Made by a program: the position numbers and the translations under genes | From: Escherichia coli | Lineage (GTDB): Bacteria; Pseudomonadota; Gammaproteobacteria; Enterobacterales; Enterobacteriaceae | Reading direction: 5' to 3' (one strand) | NCBI RefSeq assembly: GCF_003334385.1 | Contig: NZ_QOWN01000014.1 | Length of the DNA: 64,000 bases | The notes under the pieces: model-generated | Told to the model about the DNA's origin: nothing | The model's input: the letters and a program-made list of their open reading frames with translations, nothing else | Database searches by the model: none | Shown here: positions 15,718 to 60,567 of the stretch, piece after piece | Position numbering within the stretch: the first letter of the stretch is position 1 | How the letters are laid out: each line of letters opens with the position of its first letter

Positions 15718-15861
15718 ATCAACACCAACCGGAACCTCCACCACGTGCTCGAATGAGGTGTGTTGACGTCGGGGGAAAACCTCCTGTGTACCAGCGGGAT
15801 AGAGAGAAAGACAAAGACCGGAAAACAAACTAAAGCGCCCTTGTGGCGCTTTAGTTTTGTT
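15718..15861 (+). ncRNA. sraL: Candidate small RNA (SraL/RyjA-like) antisense to the soxR 3' end
   Basis: Good -10 hexamer TACAAT at 15706-15711 about 140 nt upstream of an intrinsic terminator (stem 15832-15839 / 15845-15852, then T-rich tail to 15861); no coding ORF with RBS in the interval; SraL is recalled to lie in the soxR-yjcD intergenic region on the opposite strand. Confidence 0.4.
15832..15861. terminator. Bidirectional intrinsic terminator at soxR 3' end
   Basis: Hairpin AAAGCGCC-cttgt-GGCGCTTT with T-rich run on plus strand and A-rich run upstream (T-run for minus strand); overlaps soxR stop codon. Confidence 0.7.
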
Positions 15862-16315
15862 CATCTTCCAGCAAGCGTGCGCCGGTACCTTCTTCTCCTA
15901 AGCGGTCGCCCGGGTTACGCAACGGGCAATCACTGCGCGAAAGGCAGCCACAACCAATACATCCGTCCAGTTCGTCACGCAGCGCCACTAAGGTATGAAT
16001 GCGCCGATCCAACTCTTCTCGCCATTGGGACGAAAGCTGTTTCCACTCTTTCGCACTTAACGTATGCCCTTCGGGCAACACGCCAAACGCTTCACCAATG
16101 GTCGCCAGCGGAATGCCAATACGCTGAGCAATTTTGATAATTGCAACATATCGCAACACATCACGTTTATATCGCCGCTGATTGCCGCTGTTACGGATAC
16201 TGGTAATCAACCCTTTACTTTCATAGAAATGCAGCGCCGATACCGCCACACCGCTGCGTTTCGCCACTTCGCCGGGGGTTAGCAGCGCTTTAATGCGGGG
16301 TAATTTCTTTTCCAT
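15851..16315 (-). CDS. soxR: SoxR, MerR-family redox-sensing regulator with [2Fe-2S] cluster (154 aa)
   Basis: 154 aa; N-terminal MerR HTH; C-terminal [12 protein letters not shown] cluster motif; divergent from soxS. Confidence 0.96.
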
Positions 16316-19122: not shown

Positions 19123-19659
19123 TCAGAACGGAATGTCATCATCAAAGTCCATCGGCGGCTCGTTAGACGGCGCTGCCGGAGCGGACTGCTGCGGGCGAGA
19201 CTGCGCGCCGCCGCTGAACTGATTGCCACCCTGCGGCTGCTGAGGCTGACCCCAACCGCCCTGCGGCTGACCACCACCGATATTGCCACCTGCCGGAGCG
19301 CCACCACCCTGACGACCACCCAGCATCTGCATGGTGCCGCCAACGTTCACCACGACTTCTGTGGTGTAGCGATCCTGACCGGATTGATCGGTCCATTTAC
19401 GGGTACGCAGCTGACCTTCGATATAAACCTGAGAACCTTTACGCAGATATTCGCTGGCCACTTCTGCCAGTTTGCCGAACAGCACAACGCGGTGCCATTC
19501 AGTCTGTTCTTTCATCTCGCCGGTCGCTTTATCACGCCAGGATTCGGAAGTAGCCAGCGTAATGTTGGCAACTGCGCCACCATTTGGCATGTAGCGTACT
19601 TCCGGGTCCTGACCCAGATTACCAACGAGAATAACCTTGTTTACGCCTCTGCTGGCCAT
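19123..19659 (-). CDS. ssb: Single-stranded DNA-binding protein SSB (178 aa)
   Basis: [29 protein letters not shown]-terminus; Gly/Gln-rich linker; acidic C-terminal tail [11 protein letters not shown] at 19657-19659. Confidence 0.97.
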
Positions 19660-19809
19660 GTTCGTGTCTCCTGAAAAAAATCGTTCTGAATAAGTGTAAA
19701 CGCGCGATTGTACCATTACCAATAGCGCTTTTACTATGTTGTGACCTCGGTTCCGGGAAACAAACCTGGCCAGACATTGTTACACAACACTCCGGGTAAT
19801 GCATTCCAA

Positions 19810-19829
19810 TACTGTATATTCATTCAGGT
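19810..19829. promoter_or_regulatory. LexA box (SOS box) shared by divergent ssb and uvrA promoters
   Basis: TACTGTATATTCATTCAGGT matches CTGT-N8-CAG SOS-box consensus; located in the ssb-uvrA intergenic region. Confidence 0.85.
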
Positions 19830-19912
19830 CAATTTGTGTCATAATTAACCGTTTGTGATCGCCGGTAGCACCATGCCACCGGGCAAAAAAGCGTTTAATC
19901 CGGGAAAGGTGA

Positions 19913-22735
19913 ATGGATAAGATCGAAGTTCGGGGCGCCCGCACCCATAATCTCAAAAACATCAACCTCGTTATCCCCCGCGACAAGCTCATTGTCGTGA
20001 CCGGGCTTTCGGGTTCTGGCAAATCCTCGCTCGCTTTCGACACCTTATATGCCGAAGGGCAGCGCCGTTACGTTGAATCCCTTTCCGCCTACGCGCGGCA
20101 GTTTCTGTCACTGATGGAAAAGCCGGACGTCGATCATATTGAGGGGCTTTCTCCTGCCATCTCAATTGAGCAGAAATCGACGTCTCATAACCCGCGTTCT
20201 ACGGTGGGGACAATCACCGAAATCCACGACTATTTGCGTTTGTTATTCGCCCGCGTTGGCGAGCCGCGCTGTCCGGACCACGACGTCCCGCTGGCGGCGC
20301 AAACCGTCAGCCAGATGGTGGATAACGTGCTGTCGCAGCCGGAAGGCAAGCGTCTGATGCTACTCGCGCCAATCATTAAAGAGCGCAAAGGCGAACACAC
20401 CAAAACGCTGGAGAACCTAGCAAGCCAGGGTTACATCCGTGCTCGTATTGATGGCGAAGTCTGCGATCTTTCCGATCCGCCGAAACTGGAACTGCAAAAG
20501 AAACATACCATTGAAGTGGTGGTTGATCGCTTCAAGGTGCGTGACGATCTTACCCAACGTCTGGCCGAGTCGTTTGAAACCGCGCTAGAGCTTTCCGGTG
20601 GTACCGCGGTAGTGGCGGATATGGACGACCCGAAAGCGGAAGAGCTGCTGTTCTCCGCCAACTTCGCCTGCCCAATTTGCGGTTACAGTATGCGCGAGCT
20701 GGAGCCGCGACTGTTTTCGTTTAACAACCCGGCGGGGGCCTGCCCGACCTGCGACGGCCTTGGCGTACAGCAATATTTCGATCCTGACCGCGTGATCCAG
20801 AATCCGGAACTGTCGCTGGCAGGTGGTGCGATCCGTGGCTGGGATCGCCGCAACTTCTATTATTTCCAGATGCTGAAATCACTGGCAGATCACTATAAGT
20901 TCGACGTCGAAGCGCCGTGGGGCAGCTTGAGCGCGAACGTGCATAAAGTGGTGTTGTACGGTTCTGGCAAAGAAAACATTGAATTCAAATACATGAACGA
21001 TCGTGGCGATACCTCCATCCGTCGTCATCCGTTCGAAGGCGTGCTGCACAATATGGAGCGCCGTTATAAAGAGACAGAATCCAGTGCGGTACGTGAAGAA
21101 TTAGCCAAGTTTATCAGCAATCGCCCATGCGCCAGCTGCGAAGGAACGCGTCTGCGTCGGGAAGCGCGCCACGTGTATGTCGAGAATACGCCGCTGCCCG
21201 CCATCTCCGACATGAGCATCGGTCATGCGATGGAATTCTTCAACAATCTCAAACTCGCAGGTCAGCGGGCGAAGATTGCGGAAAAAATTCTTAAAGAGAT
21301 CGGCGATCGTTTGAAATTCCTCGTTAACGTCGGCCTGAATTACCTGACGCTTTCCCGCTCGGCAGAAACGCTTTCCGGCGGTGAAGCCCAGCGTATCCGT
21401 CTGGCGAGCCAGATTGGTGCGGGCCTGGTTGGCGTTATGTACGTGCTGGACGAGCCATCTATCGGCCTGCACCAGCGCGATAACGAGCGCCTGTTGGGTA
21501 CGCTTATCCATCTGCGCGATCTCGGTAATACCGTGATTGTGGTGGAGCACGACGAAGACGCGATTCGCGCCGCTGACCATGTGATCGACATTGGCCCGGG
21601 CGCAGGTGTTCACGGCGGTGAAGTGGTCGCGGAAGGTCCACTGGAAGCAATTATGGCGGTGCCGGAGTCGTTAACCGGACAGTACATGAGCGGTAAACGC
21701 AAGATTGAAGTGCCGAAGAAACGCGTTCCGGCGAATCCGGAAAAAGTGCTGAAGCTGACAGGCGCACGCGGTAATAACCTGAAAGACGTGACGCTGACGC
21801 TGCCAGTCGGTCTGTTTACCTGCATCACAGGGGTTTCAGGTTCCGGTAAATCGACGCTGATTAACGACACACTGTTCCCGATTGCCCAACGCCAGTTGAA
21901 TGGGGCGACCATCGCCGAACCGGCACCGTATCGCGATATTCAGGGACTGGAGCATTTCGACAAAGTGATCGATATCGACCAAAGCCCAATTGGTCGTACT
22001 CCGCGTTCTAACCCGGCGACCTATACCGGCGTGTTTACGCCTGTGCGCGAACTGTTTGCGGGCGTACCGGAATCCCGTGCGCGCGGCTATACGCCGGGAC
22101 GTTTCAGCTTTAACGTTCGTGGCGGACGCTGCGAGGCCTGTCAGGGCGATGGCGTGATCAAAGTGGAGATGCACTTCCTGCCGGATATCTACGTGCCGTG
22201 CGACCAGTGCAAAGGTAAACGCTATAACCGTGAAACGCTGGAGATTAAGTACAAAGGCAAAACCATCCACGAAGTGCTGGATATGACCATCGAAGAGGCG
22301 CGTGAGTTCTTTGATGCCGTACCTGCACTGGCGCGTAAGCTGCAAACGTTGATGGACGTTGGCCTGACGTACATTCGACTGGGGCAGTCCGCAACCACCC
22401 TTTCAGGCGGTGAAGCCCAGCGCGTGAAGCTGGCGCGTGAACTGTCAAAACGCGGCACCGGGCAGACGCTGTATATTCTCGACGAGCCGACCACCGGTCT
22501 GCACTTCGCCGATATTCAGCAACTGCTCGACGTACTGCATAAACTGCGCGATCAGGGCAACACCATTGTGGTGATTGAGCACAATCTCGACGTGATCAAA
22601 ACCGCTGACTGGATTGTCGACCTGGGACCAGAAGGCGGCAGTGGTGGCGGCGAGATCCTCGTCTCCGGTACGCCAGAAACCGTCGCGGAGTGCGAAGCAT
22701 CACACACGGCACGCTTCCTTAAGCCGATGCTGTAA
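19913..22735 (+). CDS. uvrA: UvrA, excinuclease ABC subunit A (940 aa)
   Basis: 940 aa; two ABC ATPase modules (GLSGSGKSS and GVSGSGKST Walker A); zinc-finger CxxC pairs; divergent from ssb with shared LexA box. Confidence 0.97.
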
Positions 22736-51557: not shown

Positions 51558-53022
51558 ATGAATACCCAGTATAATTCCAGTTATATATTTTCGATTACCT
51601 TAGTCGCTACATTAGGTGGTTTATTATTTGGCTACGACACCGCCGTTATTTCCGGTACTGTTGAGTCACTCAATACCGTCTTTGTTGCTCCACAAAACTT
51701 AAGTGAATCCGCTGCCAACTCCCTGTTAGGGTTTTGCGTGGCCAGCGCTCTGATTGGTTGCATCATCGGCGGTGCCCTCGGTGGTTATTGCAGTAACCGC
51801 TTCGGTCGTCGTGATTCACTTAAGATTGCTGCTGTCCTGTTTTTTATTTCTGGTGTAGGTTCTGCCTGGCCAGAACTTGGTTTTACCTCTATAAACCCGG
51901 ACAACACAGTGCCTGTTTATCTGGCAGGTTATGTCCCGGAATTTGTTATTTATCGCATTATTGGCGGTATTGGCGTTGGTTTAGCCTCAATGCTCTCGCC
52001 AATGTATATTGCGGAACTGGCTCCAGCTCATATTCGCGGGAAACTGGTCTCTTTTAACCAGTTTGCGATTATTTTCGGGCAACTTTTAGTTTACTGCGTA
52101 AACTATTTTATTGCCCGTTCCGGTGATGCCAGCTGGCTGAATACTGACGGCTGGCGTTATATGTTTGCCTCGGAATGTATCCCTGCACTGCTGTTCTTAA
52201 TGCTGCTGTATACCGTGCCAGAAAGTCCTCGCTGGCTGATGTCGCGCGGCAAGCAAGAACAGGCGGAAGGTATCCTGCGCAAAATTATGGGCAACACGCT
52301 TGCAACTCAGGCAGTACAGGAAATTAAACACTCCCTGGATCATGGCCGCAAAACCGGTGGTCGTCTGCTGATGTTTGGCGTGGGCGTGATTGTAATCGGC
52401 GTAATGCTCTCCATCTTCCAGCAATTTGTCGGCATCAATGTGGTGCTGTACTACGCGCCGGAAGTGTTCAAAACGCTGGGGGCCAGCACGGATATCGCGC
52501 TGTTGCAGACCATTATTGTCGGAGTTATCAACCTCACCTTCACCGTTCTGGCAATTATGACGGTGGATAAATTTGGTCGTAAGCCACTGCAAATTATCGG
52601 CGCACTCGGAATGGCAATCGGTATGTTTAGCCTCGGTACCGCGTTTTACACTCAGGCACCGGGTATTGTGGCGCTACTGTCGATGCTGTTCTATGTTGCC
52701 GCCTTTGCCATGTCCTGGGGTCCGGTATGCTGGGTACTGCTGTCGGAAATCTTCCCGAATGCTATCGCTGGCAATCGCGGTGGCGGCCCAGTGGCTGGCG
52801 AACTACTTCGTCTCCTGGACCTTCCCGATGATGGACAAAAACTCCTGGCTGGTGGCCCATTTCCACAACGGTTTCTCCTACTGGATTTACGGTTGTATGG
52901 GCGTTCTGGCAGCACTGTTTATGTGGAAATTTGTCCCGGAAACCAAAGGTAAAACCCTTGAGGAGCTGGAAGCGCTCTGGGAACCGGAAACGAAGAAAAC
53001 ACAACAAACTGCTACGCTGTAA
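51558..53022 (+). pseudogene. xylE: xylE (D-xylose:H+ symporter, MFS) disrupted by a frameshift near 52765
   Basis: Frame from ATG 51558 matches XylE through ...SEIFPNAI, then diverges and stops at 52952; the recalled XylE C-terminus (LAIAVAAQWLANYFVSWTFPMMDKNS...TATL) continues in another frame to 53022; span is 11 nt short of a 491-aa gene. Confidence 0.8.
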
Positions 53023-57895: not shown

Positions 57896-58299
57896 AACAA
57901 TTTCCCTTCATTGAATGAATGGAGATTTACCCAAAAACATTTCGGGCGGGATCGAGTATACACAACTAAAGCATGCGAATTACGGCGCGGGGAATTAGCG
58001 ATGGCGTTTTAGGATAATTGGAATGAATATCAAATATAAGTTTCAACCTATATTTAAATAACAATAAAAATCATAAACTTAAAATAAAAACAAAAGCAAT
58101 TAATCTGCGTATTTTCCGAAATAAACAACGATTAAAAATCTATTTTAGGATTAACCTCACGGTATGATTTCCGTTAAATTACAGACAAGGGGATTTATCT
58201 GATAAAAAAATGCCGACATAACGTCGGCATTGTTATTAAGGTTATTTAATCAATCGTGCTATGTATTAATTGCCGAATACGATGTACATATCGGCATCG

Positions 58300-58383
58300 A
58301 CCTGTAGGCCTGATAAGACGCGACCGCGTCGCATCAGGCATCGGTTGCCGGATGCGGCGTGAACGCCTTATCCGGCCTACATA
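58300..58383. repeat. REP cluster downstream of pgi
   Basis: TGTAGGCCTGATAAGACGCGACCGCGTCGCATCAGGC and GCCGGATGCGGCGTGAACGCCTTATCCGGCCTACA units. Confidence 0.9.
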
Positions 58384-60261: not shown

Positions 60262-60567
60262 GTACTACCTGCGCTAGCGCAGGCCAGAAGAGGCGCGTTG
60301 CCCAAGTAACGGTGTTGGAGGAGCCAGTCCTGTGATAACACCTGAGGGGGTGCATCGCCGAGGTGATTGAACGGCTGGCCACGTTCATCATCGGCTACAG
60401 GGGCTGAATCCCCTGGGTTGTCACCAGAAGCGTTCGCAGTCGGGCGTTTCGCAAGTGGTGGAGCACTTCTGGGTGAAAATAGTAGCGAAGTATCGCTCTG
60501 CGCCCACCCGTCTTCCGCTCTTCCCTTGTGCCAAGGCTGAAAATGGATCCCCTGACACGAGGTAGTT
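60262..60567 (+). promoter_or_regulatory. Lysine riboswitch (L-box) in the lysC 5' leader
   Basis: Long GC-rich structured leader directly upstream of lysC containing AGAGGCGC ... GGAGGAG ... CCUGAGGGG-type segments; lysC is a well-known riboswitch-controlled gene. Confidence 0.75.

Follow-up and report, generated by a model that had tools for sequence, protein, structure and literature searches.

The closest described system is the SOS box shared by the divergent Escherichia coli genes uvrA and ssb, which was described by Brandsma et al. (1983, Nature 305:243; 1985, NAR 13:5095; both as cited in PMC9505508). The box overlaps the −35 element of uvrA and has a heterology index (HI) of 6.98 (PMC9505508). 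For ssb, the same paper lists three promoters: two proximal ones that are constitutive and a most distal one, P1, which alone is LexA-controlled (Brandsma 1985 via PMC9505508). The ssb–uvrA arrangement is reported to be conserved in gamma-proteobacteria (PMC3323433). Both this box and the double operator of lexA have been textbook material since the early 1980s, which limits what their recovery can count for as discovery.

The locus and its surroundings

The stretch of DNA analysed here (the window) is 64 kb long and contains both systems. The coding sequences of ssb (single-stranded DNA-binding protein; 19123-19659, minus strand) and uvrA (excinuclease ABC subunit A; 19913-22735, plus strand) were assigned from their open reading frames and the annotation of a 100%-identical record, for ssb also from its translation. 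The 253-bp gap at 19660-19912 is the whole intergenic region, bounded by the start codons of ssb (19659, minus strand) and uvrA (19913, plus strand). Farther along, dnaB (28075-29490), dinF (34688-36013), lexA (transcriptional repressor LexA; 36086-36694) and dgkA (36804-37172), all on the minus strand, were placed from the annotation of an identical E. coli record; gene coordinates are those annotated in E. coli strain N18-04097, with 6 differing positions relative to the window over 39.5 kb. A 1.3-kb stretch around the box has 100% identity to many complete E. coli chromosomes. This segment was matched in 5,426 of 5,426 complete E. coli genomes (most of the query being covered in 5,425), and of the 5,427 records from these genomes that matched, only two fall below 95% identity. 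The ssb–uvrA segment also occurs in four records that are labelled as plasmids in complete E. coli assemblies, and one genome has two copies.

Several other features of the window were recorded in passing. The annotation has two pentapeptide-repeat proteins resembling T3SS effectors, espX5 and a “SopA family protein”, which are encoded amid housekeeping genes at 10710-12002 (plus strand) and 41526-43106 (minus strand). The Hfq-binding sRNA sraL (RyjA; 15718-15858, plus strand; Rfam, 146 bits) is convergent with soxR (15851-16315, minus strand), with whose 3′ end it shares a few bases. A lysine riboswitch upstream of lysC (60280-60476, plus strand), the sRNA STnc430 near pgi (58092-58241, plus strand) and four intergenic naRNA4/REP-type elements (8409-8480, 44418-44488, 48647-48717 and 58307-58377, all minus strand) are ordinary E. 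coli features.

A single LexA operator between ssb and uvrA

The box common to uvrA and the distal ssb promoter reads TACTGTATATTCATTCAGGT and occupies 19810-19829. Its CTG-N10-CAG core is CTGTATATTCATTCAG at 19812-19827 (consensus TACTG(TA)5CAGTA), and the right half-site is TCAG, not ACAG. The sequence-only reading that preceded this analysis had the coordinates right to the base; its notation, CTGT-N8-CAG, is off by one and fails as a literal pattern, the site being CTGT-N8-TCAG (that is, CTGT-N9-CAG or CTG-N10-CAG). Apart from the box, the ssb–uvrA intergenic region holds no notable inverted repeats.

A palindrome in AT-rich intergenic DNA could arise by chance and bind no protein at all, and pattern matching does little to dispel that idea: CTGT-N9-CAG matches the window 11 times against 5.3 ± 2.5 in shuffled sequence, only about a 2-fold enrichment, and 4 of 100 shuffles reach 11. 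The loose pattern by itself is weak evidence that barely exceeds chance. The full-matrix score, on the other hand, is far beyond the shuffle distribution. A symmetrised log-odds position weight matrix (PWM) was built from 17 LexA sites (the 18 sites of PMC3009722 Table 4 minus lexA), all of which lie outside the window, so that the matrix is independent of the boxes under test. Scanned over 63,981 positions, it places the three boxes put forward by the sequence-only reading at ranks 1 to 3: the distal lexA box at 19.2 bits, the proximal lexA box at 18.1 and the uvrA/ssb box at 17.4, with the next match at 11.8. Judged by 300 dinucleotide-preserving shuffles, a window should contain 0.027 sites scoring 17 bits or more, and this one has 3; at 10.9 bits or more the expectation is 0.95 and the count is 5, of which the real boxes make up 3. 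Leave-one-out scores of the 17 training sites run from 6.3 (polB) to 27.9 bits, and the uvrA/ssb box is of middling strength among validated sites, a rank that agrees with its published heterology index. The box is also identical in sequence to an experimentally studied site: the uvrA site in PMC3009722 Table 7, with its 18-nt core ACTGTATATTCATTCAGG.

The sequence-only reading had proposed such a scan to confirm its boxes and to bring out weaker ones. The fourth and fifth matches are at chance level, and the scan found no further credible LexA site in the 64-kb window. The best match after the three real boxes, TATTGTTTTTCACGACAGTA at 6064-6083 in the nrfA–acs intergenic region, scores 11.8 bits, and a shuffled window should contain 0.57 sites that reach 11.78 bits. 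The next, GTCTGAATGAATACCCAGTA at 51552-51571 (10.95 bits), lies over the xylE start codon; shuffling yields about 0.95 sites per window at 10.9 bits or more. Both are put down to chance. A 6.9-bit match beside the lexA boxes (36763-36782) is insignificant.

Conservation across species and strains

Relatives were collected from GTDB representatives, one genome per species, with a back-translated pattern of the UvrA N-terminus that is blind to the operator. At least 120 loci were obtained, and in 61 of them, among the matches listed, ssb is adjacent and divergent to uvrA. These 61 species comprise Enterobacterales (from Escherichia to Proteus, Budvicia, Pantoea and Pectobacterium) and, again among the matches listed, two Photobacterium. 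Together with the window they give 62 intergenic regions of 214-467 nt, with 31-93% identity to the window among the listed matches. Every one of the 62 has exactly one strong LexA site (12.9-22.3 bits, median 17.4, among the matches listed), and the second-best non-overlapping match is at most 7.3 bits in all 62 of these listed regions; 12.9 bits is reached by just 0.5% of shuffled versions of the same regions. One such site at the homologous place in 61 other listed species, over intergenic DNA as dissimilar as this, argues against a chance palindrome, as do the matrix score and the identity to a studied site. Scan, shuffles, footprint and cross-species counts together rule that explanation out, and its probability is practically nil.

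A conservation footprint of the 62 regions, among the matches listed, shows islands at the box, at TGTGYCATAAT, at the uvrA ribosome-binding region (19899-19912), at TGGTACAAT and at the ssb Shine-Dalgarno sequence (around 19668-19674). The ssb leader at 19750-19805 shows no conservation in this footprint of the 62 listed regions. As a possible remnant of a lost gene (an MFS transporter or galU), that leader was rejected: a tblastn search of the intergenic region with those proteins turned up nothing but noise (best E-value 0.3). Of 5,421 E. coli records, 4,683 carry an identical 51-nt stretch that takes in the box and the −10, and in three variant E. coli sequences (two from the 51-nt search and locus L065) all differences fall outside the 20-bp box.

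The site thus has a palindromic core, a match over the full 20 bp, overlap with a core promoter and a lexA gene in the same genome, as an E. coli-type LexA operator does, and the divergent pair keeps its single LexA site in relatives. It is real, strongly conserved and already well described, a textbook case. With high confidence, the palindrome at 19810-19829 is the known E. coli uvrA/ssb LexA operator, with the dual repression proposed for it.

Operator geometry and the uvrA promoter

A strict σ70 promoter and terminator scan of 19500-20050 returned no promoter and no terminator, and for this reason the promoter hexamers given here rest on conservation and literature. On the uvrA side, conservation points to a putative extended −10, TGTCATAAT (TGT-CATAAT; 19837-19845, plus strand, hexamer at 19840-19845), which is nearly invariant in 62 species (the window included, among the matches listed). 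A weak candidate −35, TATTCA (19817-19822, plus strand), lies inside the box. Downstream, the ribosome-binding region at 19899-19912 (plus strand), with GGGAAAGG at 19902-19909, is a conserved footprint block before the uvrA ATG at 19913. No structured RNA was found in the uvrA leader (19852-19915), whose fold energy equals that of shuffles (z = 0.11).

The spacing between box and −10 is nearly fixed. Here the 3′ end of the box is 10 nt from the −10 hexamer; among the matches listed, 43 species have a 10-nt gap, one has 11 nt and 13 have 12 nt, which makes 57 of 62. In the footprint of the 62 listed regions, the box and TGTGYCATAAT (19835-19845) form one contiguous conserved module. This conserved spacing of 10-12 nt suggests that LexA covers the −35/spacer region of the uvrA promoter. 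If transcription of uvrA starts near 19852, as the position of the putative −10 would suggest, a bound LexA dimer would span roughly −43 to −24. The arrangement reads as classical promoter occlusion, agreeing with the published overlap of the −35. A few species depart from the usual spacing: Pectobacterium betavasculorum (L027) has ~75 nt inserted between the box and the conserved −10, and two Rahnella loci (L044, L074) have ~18 nt extra there. With the spacing broken, LexA may no longer be coupled to the uvrA promoter in these three loci.

The ssb side of the operator

The geometry is looser toward ssb. In the 62 regions (matches listed), anywhere from 114 to 362 nt separate the box from the ssb ATG, and the standard deviation is 44 nt, against 23 nt on the uvrA side. 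Conservation also points to a putative LexA-independent proximal ssb promoter, whose extended −10, TGGTACAAT (19715→19707, minus strand), lies 47 nt before the ssb ATG. Its footprint has the T1/A2/T6 pattern typical of a −10 element plus a conserved upstream TG, and TGnTAnnnT occurs at most 120 nt from the ssb ATG in 58 of 62 species among the matches listed, mostly 43-47 nt before it. A conserved proximal promoter so far from the box would explain high LexA-independent basal expression of ssb.

The distal promoter P1, known from the literature, would fall in the zone 19813-19842 (minus strand), where reading the sequence gives two candidate sets of hexamers: a −35 TTGACC (19832→19827, minus strand), or a −35 ATGACA (19842→19837) with a −10 TATACA (19818→19813), both on the minus strand. 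With either set the P1 core would overlap the box. Neither candidate passes a consensus scan of 19500-20050. TTGACC is not conserved beyond Escherichia, Citrobacter and Enterobacter among the matches listed, and among the same matches no P1 hexamer outside the box is conserved across genera.

Published measurements of ssb induction are small or inconsistent. By RNA-seq, uvrA is induced 3.9-fold with a lexA dependence of 4.4, and ssb 1.5-fold with a lexA dependence of 1.0 (PMC11228462). RT-qPCR found ssb induced after UV and gamma irradiation, with the induction lost in lexA3, and overexpressed in an SOS-constitutive mutant (PMC9505508); older immunoassay and microarray studies saw no ssb induction (PMC9505508). 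In Salmonella, the induction is 11.2-fold for uvrA and 9.6-fold for ssb (PMC8072944). The sequence-only reading had described one box common to divergent ssb and uvrA promoters. A single operator it is, by the matrix, by the 61 species among the matches listed and by the literature, but the two genes share it unequally: box and uvrA promoter are rigidly coupled, and the ssb side is weaker, ssb being weakly or inconsistently induced. Asymmetric sharing fits the published expression of uvrA and ssb.

A stronger version of this asymmetry would have the operator work for uvrA only, its proximity to ssb being a by-product of divergent gene order, the effect of LexA on ssb physiologically negligible and the sharing nominal. 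Several observations lean that way: the lock between the box and the uvrA −10 in 57 of 62 listed species next to a distance to ssb that varies from 114 to 362 nt, the lack of conserved P1 hexamers outside the box in the listed matches, the conserved proximal ssb promoter, the 1.5-fold RNA-seq response of ssb with a lexA dependence of 1.0, the earlier immunoassays and microarrays that detected no induction, and most of the listed Vibrio loci with ssb apart from uvrA, in which ssb has no strong box within 300 nt. Set against these are the lexA3-sensitive RT-qPCR induction of ssb after UV or gamma irradiation and its overexpression in the SOS-constitutive mutant (PMC9505508), the 9.6-fold induction in Salmonella, and Aliivibrio, where ssb and uvrA have separate boxes after the pair was split (the ssb box of L058 scores 17.8 bits; PMC3323433). 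An operator for uvrA only is unlikely, if still worth weighing, and asymmetric sharing is the preferred reading.

A related and likewise unlikely proposal is that the Enterobacterales operator is, evolutionarily and mechanically, a uvrA element, with P1 made wholly from the reverse complement of uvrA promoter parts. If so, the −35 ATGACA would be the complement of the uvrA extended −10, with the −10 TATACA within the box, and the promoters, completely interlocked, would exclude each other. The response of ssb to SOS would then be a side-effect that varies by lineage, stronger where TTGACC or another good hexamer occurs and otherwise absent.

The lexA-dinF operators and SOS gene clustering

The two tandem boxes that had been reported before lexA-dinF are confirmed, at 36701-36720 and 36722-36741. 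The distal operator, TGCTGTATATACTCACAGCA (36722-36741, read 36741→36722, minus strand), is the top match of the scan at 19.2 bits, with the lexA site left out of training, and the proximal one, AACTGTATATACACCCAGGG (36701-36720, read 36720→36701, minus strand), is second at 18.1 bits. They lie 27 nt (distal) and 6 nt (proximal) upstream of the lexA ATG at 36694 and are 21 bp apart centre to centre. A −10 candidate, TATACT (36734→36729), is inside the distal box, with TTCCAA 17 nt upstream of it. The gap between lexA and dinF is 72 nt, and none of the best 25 PWM matches falls in it. The promoter and leader of lexA therefore carry two tandem boxes with an offset of about two turns of the helix, and lexA-dinF comes after them.

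The sequence-only reading had also drawn attention to SOS genes clustered within ~17 kb, and to a window that holds the SOS repressor, its targets and dnaB. Both statements are true as description: the uvrA/ssb box and the lexA boxes are 16.9 kb apart, and the window does contain ssb, uvrA, dnaB, dinF and lexA. With the replicative helicase gene and four genes under LexA control in 17 kb, the region could be taken for a functional SOS/replication island kept together by selection. Yet when 20-40 operator regions are scattered randomly over a 4.77-Mb circle, a genome should contain 1.3-5.2 pairs of neighbours no more than 17 kb apart. It is almost certain to have one or more, and the probability that a given operator region, such as that of lexA, has a neighbour within 17 kb is 0.13-0.24. 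About twelve unrelated genes intervene, including aphA, tyrB, alr, qorA, pspG, dusA and zur, and the scan of the window found no LexA box above chance near dnaB, which on this evidence is neither a LexA target nor an SOS gene. Clustering at ~17 kb is at chance level and uninformative, and a selected island is very improbable.

A model for regulation of the divergent pair

The geometry of the locus, combined with LexA binding as known from the literature, would give the following sequence of events. In undamaged cells, a LexA dimer would bind 19810-19829. The LexA would come from lexA, 17 kb away (36086-36694), which is itself autoregulated through its two operators. Since only 10 nt lie between the end of the uvrA/ssb operator and the uvrA −10 hexamer downstream, bound LexA would occupy the −35/spacer region and keep RNA polymerase off the uvrA promoter. 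The same dimer would cover the core of the weak distal ssb promoter P1, which points in the opposite direction. Most ssb transcription would come from LexA-independent promoters near the gene, for example the putative one at 19715→19707, and this would account for the high basal level of ssb. Upon DNA damage, RecA on single-stranded DNA would trigger self-cleavage of LexA and the operator would empty; uvrA would then rise about 4-fold and ssb slightly, going by the published ratios. The exact hexamers and transcription start points in this scheme are putative.

Comparison with known systems

Outside Enterobacterales, ssb and uvrA are still divergent among the matches listed, but they are separated. 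In Vibrionaceae (PMC3323433), as in the window, uvrA has a strong LexA box, here 63-76 nt ahead of its start codon (20.8-25.7 bits; loci including L011, L096 and L108, among the matches listed). In the Vibrio loci listed, ssb is set apart from uvrA by two genes on the strand of uvrA, one for a CsgD/LuxR-type regulator and galU, and the box is therefore not shared with ssb. Most Vibrio loci among the matches listed have no strong box within 300 nt of ssb; Aliivibrio finisterrensis (L058) has a separate one upstream of ssb. Among the listed Aeromonadales, Alteromonadales and Shewanella loci, ssb is immediately preceded by a gene for a ~455-aa MFS transporter, which shares its strand and diverges from uvrA (L007, L110 and L117 from Zobellella, Oceanisphaera and a gammaproteobacterial MAG; L043, L060 and L070 from Alteromonas, Aliidiomarina and Shewanella). 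In Zobellella and Oceanisphaera, among the matches listed, a single box of 14-15 bits is found 41 nt before uvrA, in the region common to the opposite transcription unit. In most of the listed Alteromonadales loci, no box of the E. coli type is found 400 nt or less from uvrA.

Set beside these relatives, the value of the analysis lies in operators located to the base from sequence, in a 64-kb window cleared of further credible LexA sites, and in the comparative picture: across Enterobacterales the box keeps a fixed spacing to the uvrA −10, and ssb appears to rely on a conserved LexA-independent proximal promoter. Both features fit the long-standing difficulty of detecting SOS induction of ssb.

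The lexA locus matches the known E. coli autoregulatory double operator without any difference being found: two 20-bp boxes 21 bp apart, one over the −10 candidate and one just before the ATG, the distal box being identical to the lexA site in PMC3009722 Table 4. The ssb–uvrA locus likewise differs in nothing of substance from that of E. coli K-12, strain-level intergenic polymorphisms lying outside the box alone. The divergent genes are the same, the 18-nt core of the SOS box is identical, and the ~170 nt between the box and the ssb coding sequence in K-12 (PMC9505508) corresponds to 19829-19659 here.
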